Assembly (NCBI GenBank): GCA_041691575.1
Contig: JBEPUJ010000014.1
Location: 24,238 to 88,237 of the forward strand
Source of the DNA: Terriglobales bacterium
GTDB lineage: Bacteria > Acidobacteriota > Terriglobia > Terriglobales > Acidobacteriaceae
Reading direction: 5' to 3'
Length of the DNA stretch: 64,000 nucleotides
Both the position numbers and the translations under genes were made by a program. Below are positions 29,001 to 38,316 of this stretch, piece by piece (position 1 is the stretch's first letter; each line of letters begins with the position of its first letter). Under the pieces are notes generated by a model. The model had not been told where the DNA came from. It was given only the letters and a program-made list of their open reading frames with translations, and did not search any database.

Positions 29001-30623
29001 GTGTATTTGATTACTCGGAGGAGTTTTCTGGGACAGGCCGGAGTGTTTGCGACCGGTCTGCTGTTGACGGAGGCGGCGGCTGCCCATGGGATGGGGCATG
29101 AGGCGGCTGCTCCGAGTTCGGAGGTGATCGGCGCTGGTACGCTGACGCCTTTTGTCGATGAGCTTCCGCTTCCGCCGATAGCGAAGCGTGCGGGAACGCG
29201 GGCGAACCCGGAGCGCAGCGGCGAGCAGATTCCGTATTACAGGGTGGCGATGCGCGAGATGCGGATGAAGGTGCATCGCGATCTGCCTCCTACGCGCGTG
29301 TGGGGGTTCGATAACAGCTCGCCGGGGCCGATCTTTGAGACCAGAAGCGGAGAGGCGCTGCTGGTGGAGTGGGCCAATGAGCTTCCGCTGAAACATTTTT
29401 TGCCGATTGACTACACGCTGCATGGAGCGGAGAAAGATGTTCCGGAGGTGCGGAGCGTGGTCCATCTGCATGGCGGCAGGACTCCGCCGGAGAGCGACGG
29501 CTATCCCGAGGACTGGTATGTGCCGGGTAAATCGGCGGTCAATTTTTATCCGAACCGGCAGGATGCGACGACGCTGTTCTATCACGACCATGCGATGGGG
29601 ATTAATCGGCTGAACGTCTATGCCGGACTGCAGGGGATGTTCGTGATTCGCGATGCGGTGGAAGATGCGCTGAATCTTCCGCGAGGCAAGTATGAAGTGC
29701 CGCTGCTGATCTGCGACCGCTTTCTGCGCAAGGACGGGCAACTGGAGTATCCGGTCTCCGCCATACCCGGCAAGCCGTGGGTGCCAGAGGTCTTCGGCAA
29801 CGTGGTGATGGTGAATGGGAAGGTGACGCCTTATTTCGAAGTCGAGCCGAGGAAGTACCGGTTTCGCATCGTGAATGGATCGAATGGAAGGTTCTACCGG
29901 CTCTCGTTCGGCGATGGGCATGAGTTCCATATGATCGGCTCGGACCAGGGATTACTTGAGAGCCCGGCCCCGCTGAAGCGGGTGCAACTGAGCCCGGCAG
30001 AACGCGCCGATGTGATCGTCGATTTCAGCAAGTATGCGGGCCAGCAGGTTCTGCTGAGCAGCGATTCGCTGCAGATCATGCAGTTTCGCGTAGCGTCGCA
30101 AGGCGCCCCGGATACGAGCGCGCTGCCGAAACAACTGCGCGCGGTGGAGCGGATCAAGGAGTCCGATGCCGTGAAGAAGCGGCTGCTGACGCTCGACGAA
30201 CATCTGAACCTTGCCGACCAGTCGATGGACATGATGCTGAACAATACTCCGTGGCATATGCCGGTGACGGAGAATCCTGTCATCGATACGACGGAGATCT
30301 GGGAACTGGTGAATCTGACGGAGGACACTCATCCCATTCACCTTCATCTGGTGCGGTTTCAGATTCTGGATCGGCAGCGCATCGATACCAATGCCTTTTT
30401 CGATGACAGGACGGTGGACTTTACCGGTGAGGTTGAACTGCCTGCGGCGCATGAGGCCGGATGGAAGGATACGGTGCGCGTCGAGTCGGGAACGATGACG
30501 CGGATCATTGTTCCGTTCCGGGGTTTTACCGGCCGCTATGTGTGGCATTGCCATATGCTGGAGCACGAAGACAACGAGATGATGCGGCCGTATGAGGTCG
30601 TTGCCGCCCCGAACGAAGCTTGA
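29001..30623 (+). CDS. Tat-exported multicopper oxidase (CotA/bilirubin oxidase-like)
   Basis: TRRSFL Tat motif; HLH, YHDH, HPIHLH, HCHMLEHEDNEMM copper motifs. Confidence 0.92.
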   Translation: MYLITRRSFLGQAGVFATGLLLTEAAAAHGMGHEAAAPSSEVIGAGTLTPFVDELPLPPIAKRAGTRANPERSGEQIPYYRVAMREMRMKVHRDLPPTRVWGFDNSSPGPIFETRSGEALLVEWANELPLKHFLPIDYTLHGAEKDVPEVRSVVHLHGGRTPPESDGYPEDWYVPGKSAVNFYPNRQDATTLFYHDHAMGINRLNVYAGLQGMFVIRDAVEDALNLPRGKYEVPLLICDRFLRKDGQLEYPVSAIPGKPWVPEVFGNVVMVNGKVTPYFEVEPRKYRFRIVNGSNGRFYRLSFGDGHEFHMIGSDQGLLESPAPLKRVQLSPAERADVIVDFSKYAGQQVLLSSDSLQIMQFRVASQGAPDTSALPKQLRAVERIKESDAVKKRLLTLDEHLNLADQSMDMMLNNTPWHMPVTENPVIDTTEIWELVNLTEDTHPIHLHLVRFQILDRQRIDTNAFFDDRTVDFTGEVELPAAHEAGWKDTVRVESGTMTRIIVPFRGFTGRYVWHCHMLEHEDNEMMRPYEVVAAPNEA

Positions 30624-30953: not shown

Positions 30954-32048
30954 GTGGGTCGCAGAGCATCACAAATCGCTTGTTTGATCGTTAGTTGCCT
31001 GCTGTGGATGGCGTGTCCCGCGTTTGGGGCGTTAGCCGGGGGCGCTTCCTCTTCTGCGCGACCTGGAACCGGAGCTCATTCGCCGGAGTATCTCTCCCAG
31101 GGCTCAACCAGCATCTTCGACCCAGCCGCGACACCGTCGCATTGGATCTTCACGCTCTCGATGTTCGTGCTGGTCATCACGCTGGCGATTTTTTTGATCG
31201 TCGCGGGGCTGCTGATCTATGCGCTCATCCGCTATCGGCATCGCAACCTGGAGACGTACAACGAACCGGCGCAGATCTACGGGAGCAACCAGATTGAGCT
31301 TGCCTGGACGGTAATTCCCGCGCTGATCGTCGTCATGCTGTTCCTTACCTCGTCGCGAGTTATTCTTGCCACCGAGGATGCCAGGAAACCTGCGGATGCC
31401 GTCGATGTGGTGGTGGTCGGACATCAATTCTGGTGGGAATATCGCTATCCCAAGCTTGGCATCGTCACTGCAAACGAACTGCACATTCCGACCAGCGATC
31501 CTCAGCATCCAACGCCGACTTATCTCGAAATGTCGTCCGCGGACGTGGACCACAGCTTCTGGGTTCCGCGCCTTGCCGGAAAGATGGATCTCATCCCGAA
31601 TCGCGTGAACACGATGTGGATCGACCCTGAGACGCCTGGTCTCTATCTGGGGCAGTGCGCCCAATTTTGCGGCGTTCAGCATGCCAAGATGCTGCTGCGC
31701 GTCTATGCGGATACGCCTGCCGAATTTGCTGCATGGGCGGCAGAACAGAAGAAGCCCGCGGTAGAAGATCCGAGCGTTGCGGAAGGGCGTGAGGTATTTC
31801 TGCATAGCGCCTGCGTCAACTGCCACACCGTCTCCGGCACCATGGCGAATGGACGGTTCGGCCCCGACCTGACGCATTTGGCGAGCCGCGACACGATTGC
31901 CGCGGGCGCGGTTGAGAATAACGCAGACAACATGAAGAAATGGATCGATGCCCCGGCTTCTTTGAAGCCCGGCGCCTTGATGCCTCCCATGCATTTGAAC
32001 GAACACGATCTCAATGCGGTCACAGCGTACATGATGTCGCTTCACTAA
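30954..32048 (+). CDS. coxB: Cytochrome c oxidase subunit II with fused C-terminal cytochrome c (caa3 type)
   Basis: GHQFWW, DVDHSFW, CuA motif CAQFCGVQHAKM, CVNCH. Confidence 0.93.
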   Translation: MGRRASQIACLIVSCLLWMACPAFGALAGGASSSARPGTGAHSPEYLSQGSTSIFDPAATPSHWIFTLSMFVLVITLAIFLIVAGLLIYALIRYRHRNLETYNEPAQIYGSNQIELAWTVIPALIVVMLFLTSSRVILATEDARKPADAVDVVVVGHQFWWEYRYPKLGIVTANELHIPTSDPQHPTPTYLEMSSADVDHSFWVPRLAGKMDLIPNRVNTMWIDPETPGLYLGQCAQFCGVQHAKMLLRVYADTPAEFAAWAAEQKKPAVEDPSVAEGREVFLHSACVNCHTVSGTMANGRFGPDLTHLASRDTIAAGAVENNADNMKKWIDAPASLKPGALMPPMHLNEHDLNAVTAYMMSLH

Positions 32049-32114
32049 TCGGGAGATTCCTAGGCAGCCCGGATCGAGAATTTGCCGGCCAGATGGACTG
32101 AAGAAAGGGAAACG

Positions 32115-33812
32115 ATGGCTGATTCCGTATCGAGCCTTCCAGCACTGGAAGCGATCGACCCGACGGCGGAACAAAGTTCGCGGCGGTTATTCTTCGAGGT
32201 GCTGCACGACTGGGTGACGACGGTCGATCACAAAAAGATCGGCCTGATGTATATCGGCTACGCTCTGCTTTTTATGGTGGCGGGCGGCATAGAAGCGCTC
32301 ATCATGCGGATCCAGCTTGCGGTGCCGCATAACCACTTCGTCTCCCCCGAGGTCTTCAACCGGATGTTCACCATGCATGGGACCACGATGGTCTTCTTCA
32401 TGGGTATGCCCATCCTGTTTGGATTTGGAAACTACCTCATCCCCTTGATGATCGGCGCGCGCGACATGGCGTTTCCGCGCTTGAATGCGTTCAGCTTCTG
32501 GATCTCCGCGCTGGGCGGGCTGTTGCTGTATTACAGCTTCATCGGCGGATCAGGGCTTTATGGAGCGGGCAGCGCGCCGGATGTAGGCTGGTTCGCCTAT
32601 GCTCCGCTGACGGCCAAGGCCTTCTCGCCGGGACACAGCACGGACTACTGGACGATCAGCATTCTGCTAAGCGGGATCGGCAGCATCGGCACCGCGCTCA
32701 ATATCGTCGCTACGATTATTTCGATGCGCTGCCCGGGCATGAAGCTCAGCCGGATGCCGCTGCTGGCGTGGCTCTATTTAGTGCTGTCGAATATGGTCTT
32801 CATCACCGTCAGCCCGTTGACGGCGGCGCAGATCATGCTGATGCTCGATCGCTACGCTGGTTCGCATTTCTTTGATACGCAGGCTGGCGGCTCCGCTGTG
32901 CTCTGGATTCACTTCTTCTGGATCTTCGGACATCCTGAGGTCTATATCCTGGTGATGCCGGCGTTCGCGTTCATGAATGAGATCATTCCGGTCTTTTCGC
33001 GCAAGGCGATCTTCGGCTATCCGGCTATGGTGGCGGCATCGGTTGGCATCGGCTTCGTCAGTATGAGCGTCTGGGCTCACCACATGTTTACTGTCGGCAT
33101 GGGCGCGGGAGCTAATGTCTTCTTCGTCCTGTCGAGCATGGTCGTCGCGATACCGACCGGCATCAAGATCTTCAACTGGCTGGCCACGATATGGGGCGGC
33201 AAAGTGCGCTTTGCTTCTCCAATGTTGTTCAGCGTCGGCTTCCTGTTCCAGTTCCTGATTGCCGGACTCACCGGCATTATGCTTGCCGCCGCGCCGTTCG
33301 ACTGGCAACTGAACAACTCCTATTTTGTGGTCGCTCACTTCCATTACGTTCTGGTCGGCGGAATTCTCTTCGCCTTCTTCGCCGCATTCTATTACTGGTA
33401 CCCGAAGGTGACCGGCCGGATGATGAATGAGCGGCTCGCCAAATGGCACTTCTGGCTGATGGTGTTCGGGTTCCACATGACGTTCGACTTCATGCACATC
33501 CCTGGTTTGCTCGGGATGCCTCGCAGGGTCTACACCTACGAACCCCGGCCCGGATGGGAGATTCTGAACCTGATTGTGAGCATTGGCGCGATCTTCCAGG
33601 CCATTGCCGTCCTCCTGTTCGTGATCAACCTGATCCGGTCGAATTACAAGGGAGATATCGCAGGCAACGATCCCTGGGATGCGTGGACGCTCGAATGGTC
33701 TACCGCTTCGCCACCCCCGGTCTACAACTTTGCCTCCACCCCGGTTGTGTACAGCCGCCGCCCGCTGTGGGACATCAAGCATCCGGAAGACCCCGACTGG
33801 AACTACGAATGA
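32115..33812 (+). CDS. ctaD: Heme-copper oxidase subunit I, A1 type
   Basis: TMHG, ARDMAFPRLN, GHPEVY, WAHHM, PTGIK, AHFHY, GMPRR. Confidence 0.97.
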   Translation: MADSVSSLPALEAIDPTAEQSSRRLFFEVLHDWVTTVDHKKIGLMYIGYALLFMVAGGIEALIMRIQLAVPHNHFVSPEVFNRMFTMHGTTMVFFMGMPILFGFGNYLIPLMIGARDMAFPRLNAFSFWISALGGLLLYYSFIGGSGLYGAGSAPDVGWFAYAPLTAKAFSPGHSTDYWTISILLSGIGSIGTALNIVATIISMRCPGMKLSRMPLLAWLYLVLSNMVFITVSPLTAAQIMLMLDRYAGSHFFDTQAGGSAVLWIHFFWIFGHPEVYILVMPAFAFMNEIIPVFSRKAIFGYPAMVAASVGIGFVSMSVWAHHMFTVGMGAGANVFFVLSSMVVAIPTGIKIFNWLATIWGGKVRFASPMLFSVGFLFQFLIAGLTGIMLAAAPFDWQLNNSYFVVAHFHYVLVGGILFAFFAAFYYWYPKVTGRMMNERLAKWHFWLMVFGFHMTFDFMHIPGLLGMPRRVYTYEPRPGWEILNLIVSIGAIFQAIAVLLFVINLIRSNYKGDIAGNDPWDAWTLEWSTASPPPVYNFASTPVVYSRRPLWDIKHPEDPDWNYE

Positions 33813-33822
33813 GAGAGTATCG

Positions 33823-34419
33823 ATGAGCACGATTCCCATCACTCCCGATGTAGCCGAAGAGCCCTGGGTCCTGCCGGATCGAGGCACCGTCGGCATGGTC
33901 TGCCTGATCGTTGCCGAGTCCGCGATCTTCCTCATCTTCGTCGTCGCCTACATCTTTTACATGGGGCAGAGCCTGGGCGGGCCAACGCCGCAGCAGGTCC
34001 TCCAGTTGCCGATCTTCATCACGGTCTGCCTGTTGTCGAGCAGCCTGACGCTCCACTGGGCGGTCGCGGCGCTGCGTAAAAGCAAGATCGGGGCCTGCGC
34101 CGCGTGGCTTGCGGCTACCGTCGCGCTGGGCACTATCTTCCTCGTCGGAACGGGTATGGAGTGGCACCACCTTATCTATGTCGACGGTCTTTCGATTCGC
34201 ACCAATCTTTTTGGCACCACATTTTATTCGCTGATCGGTCTGCATGCGACCCATGTGGTCGTCGGTCTGGCGATGCTTTTGATGGCGCTCGTCTTTGCCC
34301 TGACCGGCCATGTGAAGGAAGAACATGCGCATCGTCTGGACGTGCTTGCGCTCTATTGGCACTTCGTTGATGCGGTGTGGGTTGTTGTATTCACGGTTGT
34401 CTATGTGCTCGGACGATGA
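33823..34419 (+). CDS. ctaE: Cytochrome c oxidase subunit III, short 5-TM form
   Basis: GMVCLIVAE, FGTTFYSLIGLHATHV, LYWHFVDAVW. Confidence 0.92.
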   Translation: MSTIPITPDVAEEPWVLPDRGTVGMVCLIVAESAIFLIFVVAYIFYMGQSLGGPTPQQVLQLPIFITVCLLSSSLTLHWAVAALRKSKIGACAAWLAATVALGTIFLVGTGMEWHHLIYVDGLSIRTNLFGTTFYSLIGLHATHVVVGLAMLLMALVFALTGHVKEEHAHRLDVLALYWHFVDAVWVVVFTVVYVLGR

Positions 34420-34458
34420 GAGCTTTGCAAATTTTGAGGGATGCTCGAAAGGGATTCG

Positions 34459-35313
34459 ATGTCAGTCGCTGAATCAGAACACGGACAAGAGCGTACAGGC
34501 GTAGTGGTGTTGCCGACACCGACCGCGTGGCCGCTGGTGCTCTCGCTTGGCATTACGCTGCTGCTGGCGGGGCTGCTGACGCATTGGTTTATCAGCGTCC
34601 TCGGCCTGGCGTTGATGGTCCCGTCCTCGATTGGATGGTTTCGCCAGGTGCTGCCGCACGAGCAGCATGAGTCGGTGCCCGTTCGCATCAAGGTGGAGAC
34701 CATCACGACGCGGCGCATCAACGTGGTCAGAATTCCCCTCGACGAGAACCATCGAAAAGTTCTGCCCTACGAGACCTACACCATAATGGCCGGAGTCAAG
34801 GGCGGCCTCGTCGGCGGTATTGCGATGATCGTACCGGCGACGCTCTTTAGCCTCATTCGATATCACAGCCTCTGGTACTCCGCGAATTTGCTGGCTGCTG
34901 GCGGCTTTGTGGACTGGGCGAATGCGAGCGACGCCTTCCTGTCGAGCTTTCATATGGAGGGACTGCTCGCCGCAGCGGCCATCCATATCGTCACCTCGCT
35001 GCTGGTGGGGCTGCTTTATGGAGCCATGCTTCCGATGTTTCCCTGGAAGCCGATCTTGACCGCCGGCTTTGTCGCTCCGTTTCTCTGGACAGGAATTCTT
35101 TACAGCGCGCTGGGCGTCATCAGCCCGATTCTGGATCAGCGCATCGACTGGCTCTGGTTCATCGTCTCGCAGATTGCATTCGGCCTGGTCTGCGGCTTTG
35201 TCGTGAACCTGCAGGTAAGGGTGCGAACCGCGCAATTCCGCTCGTTGCCATTTACCGTTCGCGCGGGAATCGAAGGTGCCCACAAGAAGGGCGAGAACGA
35301 GGAGGACGAATAG
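34459..35313 (+). CDS. Membrane protein: CtaF/subunit IV-like N-terminus fused to an extra multi-TM domain
   Basis: PTPTAWPLVLSLG...GWFRQVL resembles COX3 helices I-II; five to six further hydrophobic segments. Confidence 0.55.
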   Translation: MSVAESEHGQERTGVVVLPTPTAWPLVLSLGITLLLAGLLTHWFISVLGLALMVPSSIGWFRQVLPHEQHESVPVRIKVETITTRRINVVRIPLDENHRKVLPYETYTIMAGVKGGLVGGIAMIVPATLFSLIRYHSLWYSANLLAAGGFVDWANASDAFLSSFHMEGLLAAAAIHIVTSLLVGLLYGAMLPMFPWKPILTAGFVAPFLWTGILYSALGVISPILDQRIDWLWFIVSQIAFGLVCGFVVNLQVRVRTAQFRSLPFTVRAGIEGAHKKGENEEDE

Positions 35314-36080
35314 TGAGAATGTCCTCCGTCCTCTCTCTCCTTGCTGCCTCTCTTTTGTGTGCGGCGACCTTTGGCTGTAACAGCGCGCCGGGACGTCCCA
35401 AGGCTGGCCCCGAAGTTTTGCGTCCCGACGAGGTGCAGGATTTCGCCACGCTCTACAAACAGAATTGCGCTGCCTGCCACGGAGAAAATGGCAGGCAGGG
35501 TGCAGCCGCCTCTCTGGCCAATCCTGAATATCTGGCATTGGCAGGAGAAAATTCGCTGCTCCAGGTTACGTCGTTAGGCGTGCCCGGCACGCTGATGCCC
35601 GCGTTTGCGCAGAGCGCGGGAGGCATGCTCACCGACCGCCAGATCCATAGCCTGGTAGACGGCATGATGAAGCAGTGGGGAAAGGCTGACGCTCTGGCCG
35701 GACAGAATCCTCCGCCATACGCAGCGGCAACCGCAGGAGACGCCCAACAGGGGCAGCAGGTCTTCGCAACGTATTGCGCCCGCTGCCATGGCGCCGACGG
35801 CAAGGGCGCGACGGCCAGAGATGCAGGCGCAAAGACTGAGCGCAAACTTGGGTCGATCGTCGATCCTTCCTATCTCGCGCTGGTCAGCAACCAGAGTTTA
35901 CGAACGATGACGATTGTCGGCATTCCGGATGAAGGGATGCCGGACTGGCGCGGAGATCTTCTCTCGCACCCCATGACCGACAAGGAAGTTACGGATGTAG
36001 TGGCATGGCTGGCCTCCCAGCGGTCGCCTTATCCCGGCCAACCTTACCCCACAGCGCCTGCAGCCCAGCGCCCGCACTAA
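35313..36080 (+). CDS. Diheme cytochrome c lipoprotein (QcrC-like)
   Basis: Lipobox TFGC; CAACH and CARCH; distal Met candidates (LMPAF, GMPDW). Confidence 0.88.
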   Translation: MRMSSVLSLLAASLLCAATFGCNSAPGRPKAGPEVLRPDEVQDFATLYKQNCAACHGENGRQGAAASLANPEYLALAGENSLLQVTSLGVPGTLMPAFAQSAGGMLTDRQIHSLVDGMMKQWGKADALAGQNPPPYAAATAGDAQQGQQVFATYCARCHGADGKGATARDAGAKTERKLGSIVDPSYLALVSNQSLRTMTIVGIPDEGMPDWRGDLLSHPMTDKEVTDVVAWLASQRSPYPGQPYPTAPAAQRPH

Positions 36081-36100
36081 CCGGCAAGACGGAGACACTG

Positions 36101-36760
36101 ATGAGCGAACACGAGAGCGAGCACCTGACCGGCGATCCGAGACCGGAAGAAAATAAATTGCAGAGTGAGGCACGGCCTGTATCCAACTCTAAGAATGATC
36201 CTAAAGACCATTCCCGTCGTGTCTTCCTGTTCAAGGTCTCTTTGTTGATCAATGGGGCGGTGGGCGTGGTGCTTGCCGTTCCCGTTCTCGGATATCTGCT
36301 GGGGCCGGTGATCCAGAAGAAGAATGGCTACCACTCCTGGATCACGCTGGGCAACGTGAACGATTTTCCGGAAGGCGAGACGCGGCTGGCCAACTATCGT
36401 AATCCATCCACCACGCAGTGGGACGGCCAGACGGGCGACATTCCGTGCTGGGTTCGCCGCGTATCGGGCAATCAGTTTCAGGTCTTCGCCATCAATTGCG
36501 CCCACCTCGGCTGTCCGGTCCGATGGTTCTCTGAGTCGAAGCTCTTCCTCTGCCCCTGCCATGGCGGCGCGTACTACGAAGATGGCGAGCGCGCTGCAGG
36601 GCCGCCCGAGCGTGGTCTCTTCGAATACAAGTACAGGGTCGCGGGAGCCAAGCTGATGATCAATGCTGGTGAGATGCCGACGCTCTCAACCCCGGCCAGC
36701 TCGCCGAGCGCCAACTTTGTACCACTGGAAAAAATAGGGTGTGGATCATGCAAGAGCTAA
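36101..36760 (+). CDS. qcrA: Rieske iron-sulfur subunit of a bc complex
   Basis: SRRVFL Tat motif, TM anchor, CAHLGC and CPCHGGAY. Confidence 0.92.
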   Translation: MSEHESEHLTGDPRPEENKLQSEARPVSNSKNDPKDHSRRVFLFKVSLLINGAVGVVLAVPVLGYLLGPVIQKKNGYHSWITLGNVNDFPEGETRLANYRNPSTTQWDGQTGDIPCWVRRVSGNQFQVFAINCAHLGCPVRWFSESKLFLCPCHGGAYYEDGERAAGPPERGLFEYKYRVAGAKLMINAGEMPTLSTPASSPSANFVPLEKIGCGSCKS

Positions 36761-38316
36761 AGAAGTCCGGTCTGCGAAAACTCGGCATGGGAGTGTACGA
36801 CTGGTTCGAGTATCGTCTCGGCCTCGGCAAACCGGCGATGGACGCGGCGGCGCATCCCGTTCCGGCCAGCAGCGCAAGCTGGTGGTATGTTTTTGGCAGC
36901 GCCGCGACGGTGCTGTTCGCATTGCAGATCATGACCGGCGTTCTGCTTGCGCTGGTTTACACACCGTCCGCAAGTGAGGCGTGGAACAGCCTCCAGTTCC
37001 TCAACGACAAGGTTGCGCTGGGCTGGTTCCTGCGCGCATTGCATGGATGGGGCTCGGACTTCATGGTCGCCATCGTGCTCATCCACATGATGCAGGTCTT
37101 CATGTTCGGTGCGTACAAGTTTCCCCGCGAACTGACCTGGATTATCGGAGTGTTTCTTCTGCTCCTGACCCTGGGCATGGCCTTCACCGGACAGGTGCTG
37201 CGCTTCGATCAGGACGCCTACTGGGGCCTCGGCATCGGCGCTTCGATTGCGAGCCGCGTGCCTCTTATTGGCGCGCCTCTGGTTCATCTGATGCTCGGCG
37301 CACCCATCATTGGCAGCGCTACGCTCTCACGCTTCTTTACCCTTCATGTCTTTGTTATCCCCGGCATCCTGCTGGCTGGTATCGCGCTTCATCTTTTGAT
37401 GGTGCTACGGCTTGGAATCAATGAGTGGCCCATGCCCGGGCGCGTCGTTCGCAAGAGCACCTACGAGGCGGAGTATCACAAGCTCACCGAAAAAGAGGGC
37501 ATTGCCTTTGTGCCCGATGGCGCATGGAAGGATGCCATCTTCGCCGCCGCCATTGTGCTGGCGGTAATGGCATGCGCCTTCTTCTTCGGCCCGTTCGGCC
37601 CCACCGGCCAGCCCGATCCTACGATCATCCAGACAGCGCCGAAGCCGGACCCTGCGTTCCTCTGGATCTTCGCCGTGCTCTCCCTTCTGCCGGCCAGCCT
37701 GGAGACGCCGATCATCCTGATCGCGCCCGTAATCATTATCGGAGCCATGCTGTTGCTGCCGCTGGTCGCGGGCGAAGGTGAAAAACACTGGGCCCGCCGT
37801 CCGCTCGCTGTGTTGATGGTCACGGTCATCGCGGTCTCTCTCGGCATCTTTACCCGGCTGGGAATCACCACTCCGTGGAGCCCGGTGATGAATGCGTGGT
37901 CCAGCGACATCATTCCTCCGAAACTCCTTCATGAAGCCACGCCGCTTGAACGGCAGGGCGCGCTCGTCTTCCAGAACAAGCAGTGCCGCAACTGCCACGA
38001 GGTTGCCGGGCAGGGCGGACAGAGAGGCCCCGATCTCGATTCTGTGGCGACACGCCTGACCGAAGACCAGATGGTGCGCCAGGTATTGCAGGGCGGCGGA
38101 AATATGCCCGCCTATGGCAATGCCCTCAGCCCGTCGCAGACCACGGCGCTGGTTGCCTTTCTCAAGACTCTGCGCGGCAATGACCTGAGACCCGCGCAGG
38201 ATGCCTCCCGCGCTCTCGGCAATATCAATCCTCCGGAATCAACCAGGCCCGGCGAGCAGATTCCTTCAGGTCAATCGCACCTGTCGAAGGAATCGCCTGC
38301 TTCGGGGAAGCCATAG
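36748..38316 (+). CDS. qcrB: Cytochrome b (b6 plus subunit IV fused) with C-terminal cytochrome c
   Basis: LHGW/LIHM and TLHV/ALHL heme pairs, DQDAYWG, CRNCH; start 36739 or 36748. Confidence 0.92.
   Translation: MQELKKSGLRKLGMGVYDWFEYRLGLGKPAMDAAAHPVPASSASWWYVFGSAATVLFALQIMTGVLLALVYTPSASEAWNSLQFLNDKVALGWFLRALHGWGSDFMVAIVLIHMMQVFMFGAYKFPRELTWIIGVFLLLLTLGMAFTGQVLRFDQDAYWGLGIGASIASRVPLIGAPLVHLMLGAPIIGSATLSRFFTLHVFVIPGILLAGIALHLLMVLRLGINEWPMPGRVVRKSTYEAEYHKLTEKEGIAFVPDGAWKDAIFAAAIVLAVMACAFFFGPFGPTGQPDPTIIQTAPKPDPAFLWIFAVLSLLPASLETPIILIAPVIIIGAMLLLPLVAGEGEKHWARRPLAVLMVTVIAVSLGIFTRLGITTPWSPVMNAWSSDIIPPKLLHEATPLERQGALVFQNKQCRNCHEVAGQGGQRGPDLDSVATRLTEDQMVRQVLQGGGNMPAYGNALSPSQTTALVAFLKTLRGNDLRPAQDASRALGNINPPESTRPGEQIPSGQSHLSKESPASGKP

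Follow-up and report, generated by a model that had tools for sequence, protein, structure and literature searches.

An A1-type caa3 oxidase operon of Terriglobia with a probably abolished Mg/Mn site

What becomes of a proton-pumping cytochrome c oxidase once the ligands of its Mg/Mn site are no longer encoded? The question is raised by a caa3-type oxidase operon in a 64,000-nucleotide stretch of DNA from a Terriglobales bacterium (GenBank assembly GCA_041691575.1, contig JBEPUJ010000014.1), which we call the window; coordinates are window positions, and all window features named here lie on the + strand. In A-type oxidases, water and pumped protons are proposed to leave by way of the Mg/Mn site and its water cluster, whose role has long been disputed. 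One view regards the Mg-containing cluster as a store for the pumped proton (PMC12901375), and another regards Glu198 (bovine numbering) as the proton exit (PMC8795186). The answer that we favor with considerable confidence is that the window encodes an intact A1 caa3 oxidase of the proton-pumping type whose Mg/Mn site was abolished on the stem of a clade within Terriglobia, most likely leaving a site occupied by water only.

The ligand positions can be read directly from the translated genes. In subunit I (ctaD/coxA), positions 33297-33347 translate to FDWQLNNSYFVVAHFHY, and in subunit II (ctaC/coxB) positions 31656-31691 translate to CAQFCGVQHAKM. Subunit I reads FDWQL-N411-N412-S-YFVVAHFHY (codons AAC AAC at 33312-33317), whereas the bovine enzyme has H368-D369, and subunit II reads C-A-Q237-F-C (Gln codon at 31662-31664), whereas the bovine enzyme has E198. 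No gap interrupts the register between these motifs and the haem ligands (HFH) or the CuA ligands (C..C...H..M), which equates N411/N412 with bovine H368/D369 (Rhodobacter sphaeroides H411/D412) and Q237 with bovine E198. The absence of all three Mg/Mn ligands, claimed by the first-pass annotation of this DNA, is thus borne out by the codons themselves. Subunit II keeps Asp212, the equivalent of bovine D173.

Everything else that identifies an A1 oxidase is in place, including the D-channel, GHPEVY and K-channel residues that the same annotation had listed. The D-channel entrance is represented by D128 and N135 in GARDMAFPRLN (32463..32486), the K-channel by Lys362 in PTGIKIF (33165..33167), and the GHPEVY motif (32928..32945; FGHPEVY spans 32925-32945) supplies the A1-type Glu286 together with the cross-linked Tyr and a His that binds CuB. 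The six His ligands of haem a, haem a3 and CuB are complete, with the motifs MHG, GHPEVY, AHHMF and AHFHY all found, GHPEVY takes the place of the YSHPxV of A2 enzymes, and the Arg pair R481/R482 is kept. In subunit II the CuA motif C235-A-Q237-F-C239-G-V-Q-H243-A-K-M246 (31656..31691) completes, with H200, the CuA ligand set (H200, C235, C239, H243, M246). Subunit I residue numbers are counted from TTG 32082, the start of the longest open reading frame.

A degenerating oxidase, or one diverted to a non-pumping role or another substrate, could also account for the missing ligands. We consider this very improbable. Beyond the lost site itself, the only point in its favor is the proposal that Glu198 is the proton exit in Corynebacterium (PMC8795186). 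Set against it are the retained ligands of haem, CuB and CuA, both proton channels (D and K), GHPEVY and the Arg pair. Over 200 sequences, moreover, share 69-100% identity and leave many alignment columns invariant, and the bc-complex operon context is conserved in a type of superoperon reported to be transcribed (PMC8407424).

Those sequences also show that the loss is not a trait peculiar to this organism. It is an old, clade-wide state, fixed across 201 distinct orthologues from Terriglobia (69-100% identity): Asp or Glu occurs at position 412 in 0/201, and every paired subunit II carries Gln. Because it is fixed across so large a clade, the motif loss is not a chance event in one sequence. 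A scan of species-representative genomes found 80 orthologous loci in Acidobacteriaceae, Bryobacterales, 'Acidoferrales' and further groups of Terriglobia, with identities of 69-85%; His-Asp is present in 0/80 subunit I loci, the readings being SG, GN, SA, TG, SL, HN, TA, GG, SN and NG, and all adjoining subunit II genes that were found carry Gln. The genomes G008, G017, G043 and G068, flagged as unpublished, were left out, and none of the claims made here relies on them. Among the 120 closest proteins in a collection of 5.8 billion, Asp at 412 appears in none of 117 readable motifs. Proteins 97-100% and 87-90% identical to the window subunit I read NN, and HN occurs at 94% identity. Cultured hosts of the clade enzyme among the matches are Granulicella, Edaphobacter and Tunturiibacter. 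One 'Sulfotelmatobacter' genome (G141; loci L207, L209 and L214) carries three copies of the Mg-free bc1-A1 oxidase, which read SN, SL and GN.

The two subunit I positions are no longer held to particular residues within the clade. Across an alignment of 85 clade sequences, the entropy reaches 1.84 bits at column 411 (rank 26 of 476 core columns) and 1.75 bits at column 412 (rank 36), against a median of 0.37, and W408, Y414, V416 and A418-Y422 are invariant beside them. Parsimony on the 201-member tree needs at least 41 changes at 411 and at least 29 at 412, and D, E, K or R stands at neither position in the 201 clade sequences. Positions so variable and yet never charged have therefore lost the ligand role, with the uncharged state still constrained. 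The first-pass annotation had measured the loss against H-D-T as the rule for A-type oxidases, which is right as a majority and wrong as a rule: HD is the commonest reading, found in only 62% of the 131 full-length sequences that represent clusters among the top 150 matches (motifs extracted by alignment). The Mg/Mn site (His368, Asp369, Glu198) is a typical, not a defining, feature of A1 enzymes.

The position of the loss can be placed on a tree. Among 251 subunit I sequences analyzed with FastTree, the clade is monophyletic with support 1.0 and a stem length of 0.36; its node has support 0.785 in the separate 201-member tree. The sister group reads TD or SD, and deeper relatives read HD or TD. 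Glu stands at 198 in both sister sequences from genome G115, for which subunit II was recovered, and in a 54%-identical copy that sits beside the Mg-free enzyme in a Bryobacteraceae genome. Subunit II is unpaired for the non-acidobacterial sisters (P0001, P0002 and others) and likewise for the fragments P0056, P0094 and P0082 ('FDWQL-SD/HD'). In the aa3 oxidase of Corynebacterium glutamicum, which has T-Asp391 and Glu287, the site is occupied by Mn2+ (PMC8795186), so that His368 is dispensable and Asp and Glu are the decisive ligands. Both Asp369 and Glu198 appear to have been lost on the clade stem. We rejected as unproven the idea that the clade began with His-Asn: Fitch parsimony gives {G,S,H} and {G,N} at the root, and the basal placement of the HN lineages is weakly supported.

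The surroundings of the site changed as well. We compared the clade with 49 acidobacterial oxidases of the Asp/Glu type at the bovine water-cluster residues listed in PMC12901375 (Table 1). Bovine Q232, which is Gln in 100% of the Asp/Glu set, is Met or Ile in the clade and Ile276 in the window enzyme. The same loop before helix VI (32877..32909) has Ala272 for P228, Ser271 for D227 and Thr266 for P222. In the second-shell segment of subunit II, D212-L-I-P-N216 (31587..31601), Asn216 takes the place of G177, a position that is Gly in 92% of Asp/Glu-type oxidases. These changes amount to a remodelling of the whole pocket on the stem branch, beyond three isolated substitutions.

These data bear on the possibility that a cation (Mg2+, Mn2+, Ca2+ or Na+) is still bound through other ligands. 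Candidates for such ligands are the amide oxygens of Asn and Gln and, in subunit II, the retained Asp212, and paralogues in states with a charge of -1 (TE/Q, HD/Q) may still bind metal. We nevertheless hold this to be improbable for the clade enzyme: the residues that orthologues have at 412 (Gly, Ala or Leu) and at 411 (Gly, Ser or Thr) are unable to ligate a metal, the two columns are among the most variable, the Gln232 equivalent is now Met or Ile, and ba3 oxidase with the same Asn/Gln pair holds no cation.

Among 174 unique acidobacterial subunit I/II pairs, a non-acidic residue at 369 is combined with Gln at 198 in 98 and Asp with Glu in 58; a further 10 pairs have Glu with Gln, 8 have Asp with Gln, and 0 have a residue other than Asp at 369 together with Glu at 198. 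Clustering at 65% identity leaves 5 clusters with the non-acidic/Gln combination and 14 with Asp/Glu. His368 is freer, since Thr or Ser followed by Asp occurs with Glu 13 times. What was initially described as a coordinated loss of three ligands therefore holds up as strong co-variation of Asp369 and Glu198, with His368 varying largely alone.

Other combinations appear beyond the Acidobacteriota, in an A1-type metagenomic lineage (loci L223-L302 on peat and soil metagenome contigs) that is related to the cluster representative P0136. It contains 36 pairs with Arg368-Gly369 and Glu198, 10 with Asn-Gly and Lys197-Glu198, and 18 with Asn/Tyr-Gly and Gln, with few exceptions overall. A basic side chain in this lineage looks like a substitute for the metal ion. 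A rule that Glu198 never accompanies a residue other than Asp at 369 holds in the 174 acidobacterial pairs and fails in the Arg368/Lys197 lineage, and we replaced it with a description in terms of charge balance. The formal charge summed over 368, 369, 197 and 198 is -2 or 0 in 217/241 pairs. We infer that the conserved property may be electroneutrality of the buried site, reached either by two carboxylates balancing a divalent metal or by the absence of any net charge.

The observations suggest a sequence of events. On the stem branch, the carboxylates of Asp369 (I) and Glu198 (II) would have been swapped for uncharged residues, and Q232, P228, D227 and P222 (I) and G177 (II), which line the water cluster, would have been replaced on the same branch. 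Removal of the +2 of the metal together with the -2 of the carboxylates would keep the buried site neutral. Afterwards, positions 411 and 412 of subunit I would have drifted among small or uncharged residues, Asn-Asn being one recent drift state, with His-Asn in relatives 94% identical to the window enzyme. Above the haem propionates the site would now hold a water cluster only, as in Thermus ba3 (His-Asn/Gln, Mg-free).

A metal-free, neutral site, first suggested from the ligand motifs of the window enzyme, is well supported by comparison, because positions 411 and 412 are variable yet uncharged, Gln is fixed, the water cluster is remodelled and the Asn/Gln pair matches that of ba3. We infer on these grounds that the metal is absent, that the site holds only water and that proton pumping continues. 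Several points weigh against this. In the window protein the amide oxygens of Asn412 and Gln237, with Asp212 and waters, could in principle still hold a cation. The ancestral states at 411 and 412 are ambiguous ({G,S,H}, {G,N}), which leaves an ordered route, Asp to Asn first and drift afterwards, conjectural, and the trees are FastTree approximations. Additionally, the transcription evidence from PMC8407424 concerns the superoperon type. No description of an A-family cytochrome c oxidase that naturally lacks the Mg site came up in a literature search. Mutants of the Mg/Mn ligands in Rhodobacter and Paracoccus reportedly lose Mn and keep activity; if so, a natural or neutral loss is plausible.

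There is a possible selective explanation for the loss, raised by the first-pass annotation as adaptation to acid or low Mg. Bacteria of acidic, Mg-poor, Mn/Al-rich soils may have shed a site on the outer (P) side that is acid-labile or easily mis-metallated. In its favor, three paralogue families in the genus, each nested among Asp/Glu relatives, changed independently to Gln198 and a residue other than Asp369: the bc1-A1 oxidase (xx/Q), an A2 oxidase (TE/Q) and a third A1 oxidase (HN/Q). For both the TE/Q and the HN/Q group, the neighbors in the tree are Asp/Glu sequences of G067 and G091, genomes from the same family, which makes these three parallel changes. Asp369 is absent from all A-family oxidases of this genome, of seven congeners and of genomes G051, G079 and G126, and Gln198 is present in those same genomes wherever the partner subunit II was found. 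The states of the A2 and the other A1 oxidase agree within genomes (E/E in 11 genomes, Q/Q in 7, mixed in 3), other oxidases carry Gln in 18/23 cases in genomes with the clade oxidase and in 11/64 in genomes without it, and many clade members come, by their record titles, from peat, palsa or acid-soil metagenome-assembled genomes. Parallel losses in three families hint at a lineage-level cause.

There are also objections to this explanation. These counts ignore phylogeny, and the 7 Q/Q genomes amount to about three lineages. G067 and G091, from the same family, have only Asp/Glu oxidases, and G140, G141 and G143 carry the Mg-free oxidase beside Asp/Glu oxidases. A neutral loss is plausible as well if Rhodobacter and Paracoccus site mutants do stay active. 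We therefore regard adaptive loss as doubtful. The same tentative standing applies to the combined proposal that, under the charge-balance rule, a parallel metal-free switch of three families in one acid-soil lineage was selected to remove a vulnerable outer-side metal site. The broader claim that every host of the clade enzyme has only Mg-free oxidases was tried and is ruled out by the Asp/Glu oxidases of G140, G141 and G143.

Other oxidases of this genome and of its relatives show features of their own. Outside the window, G000 C1:1472-3058 (L004) is the third A1 paralogue, in which GARRMAFPVAN has Arg for the Asp of the D-channel entrance, a position that is R, T, S or H in congeners. Its K-channel motif is shifted (PASAKVL), its Mg site reads His-Asn / CTQVCG, its Gln232 equivalent is Leu, and Asn replaces the Asp173 equivalent of its subunit II. 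Two further loci outside the window, C2:6132-7655 (L003) and C12:51719-53239 (L002) of G000, encode A2-type subunit I (YSHPAVY) with Thr-Glu at 368/369. L003 has the partner motif CTQYCG, and its carboxylate has apparently been transferred to subunit I from subunit II; L002 is without an adjacent subunit II. In the cluster representatives P0006, P0025, P0072, P0083 and P0109, A-family subunit I relatives near the query, the motif is GHPWVY or AHPWVY, with Trp for the helix VI Glu by which the A1 proton path is defined. A congener carries a subunit I pseudogene (G002:C2:1564212-1565556) interrupted by many in-frame stop codons (one piece has 7 TGA, another has TGA, TAG and TAA).

In the window, subunit II (30954..32048) combines two transmembrane helices and a CuA domain with a cytochrome c domain that is fused at the C terminus and has the haem motif CVNCH (31812-31826). 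It matches the Pfam families COX2 (PF00116), COX2_TM and Cytochrom_C (PF00034). The complete CuA set and the fused c-type haem domain make the enzyme caa3-type, and its best solved match is Thermus caa3 subunit II (2YEV_B, E 3.7e-65). Subunit I (32115..33812) is called from Met12 (32115) in database gene calls, and in relatives at 565 amino acids. It matches COX1 (PF00115, E 3.7e-155), and solved A-family oxidases align with it over the full length, the best being Mycobacterium tuberculosis 8HCR (2.5e-160). Subunit III (ctaE/coxC, 33823..34419) is of the short form, with 198 amino acids, and matches Pfam COX3.

The remainder of the superoperon (34441..38316) encodes a 290-amino-acid membrane protein, a dihaem cytochrome c, a Rieske protein and a fusion of cytochrome b with cytochrome c. 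The membrane protein (34441-35313), between subunit III and the dihaem cytochrome c, is polytopic and matched no Pfam family. This order on one strand, ctaC-ctaD-ctaE and then the cytochrome c, Rieske and cytochrome b genes, is that of the acidobacterial bc1-A1 caa3 superoperon (PMC8407424), and the caa3 oxidase is predicted to be co-transcribed with the bc complex. The nearest named relatives are proteins of Granulicella and Edaphobacter, which assigns the genome to the Acidobacteriaceae. The gene immediately before the oxidase operon (29001-30623), which runs in the same direction, encodes a three-domain multicopper oxidase with a twin-arginine-like N-terminus (RRSFLGQAG). For genome annotation, the window operon is, judging by its sequence, an ordinary and presumably functional caa3 oxidase operon.

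A natural clade of otherwise canonical A1 enzymes that probably lacks the metal, and lacks both carboxylates and Gln232, offers a test system free of engineered mutants. The sequence rule for metal occupancy that it suggests is one of balanced charge, with Asp369 and Glu198 lost together and Arg or Lys replacing the metal. If true, the charge-balance and selection reading would provide natural A1 oxidases, in culturable hosts, that pump without the Mg-water cluster.

Among known systems, the superoperon of Trojan et al. 2021 (PMC8407424) shares its gene arrangement with the window operon and comes from the same bacterial family. That paper describes the bc1-A1 caa3 superoperon as transcribed in cultured acidobacteria down to nanomolar O2; it contains no mention of the Mg/Mn site, and a term search of it for 'magnesium' gave no match. 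The closest solved subunit I chains are those of the actinobacterial bcc-aa3 oxidases (M. tuberculosis 8HCR, Mycobacterium smegmatis 6ADQ, C. glutamicum 7Q21; E about 1e-160). Oxidase and bc genes are clustered there as in the window, and His368 is already replaced (V-T-D-S-YF). The actinobacterial enzymes keep Asp and Glu, and that of C. glutamicum is Mn2+-bound (PMC8795186), whereas the window enzyme is without both carboxylates.

With canonical A1 aa3 oxidases (bovine 1OCC, R. sphaeroides 1M56, Paracoccus denitrificans 1AR1) the window enzyme shares the fold, the redox ligands, the GHPEVY Glu, the CuA centre, the D-channel Asp/Asn, the K-channel Lys and the Arg pair. It differs at the Mg/Mn site, where the canonical enzymes hold the metal with His-Asp/Glu and have Gln232, Pro228 and Pro222, and the window enzyme has Asn-Asn/Gln, Ile, Ala and Thr. 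The caa3 oxidase of Thermus thermophilus (2YEV) has the same fused cytochrome c domain but keeps the Glu, in CAELCG. That enzyme is A2-type.

The likeness at the site itself is to the ba3 oxidase of T. thermophilus, a B-family enzyme that shows the same swaps of Asp for Asn and Glu for Gln. B-family ba3 enzymes lack the D channel and the GHPEVY Glu. Both of these are present in the window enzyme, so that only its Asn/Gln site is ba3-like; among the listed PDB matches of its subunit I there are no B-family chains, the best matches all being A-family. At these positions ba3 has H376-N377 and Q151, and its water cluster is without Mg (PMC12901375, PMC3141039); Q151 is the Gln in the CuA motif to which the first-pass annotation had correctly pointed. 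Since the window enzyme is A1-type at every channel residue, its likeness to ba3 is convergent and limited to the Mg site.

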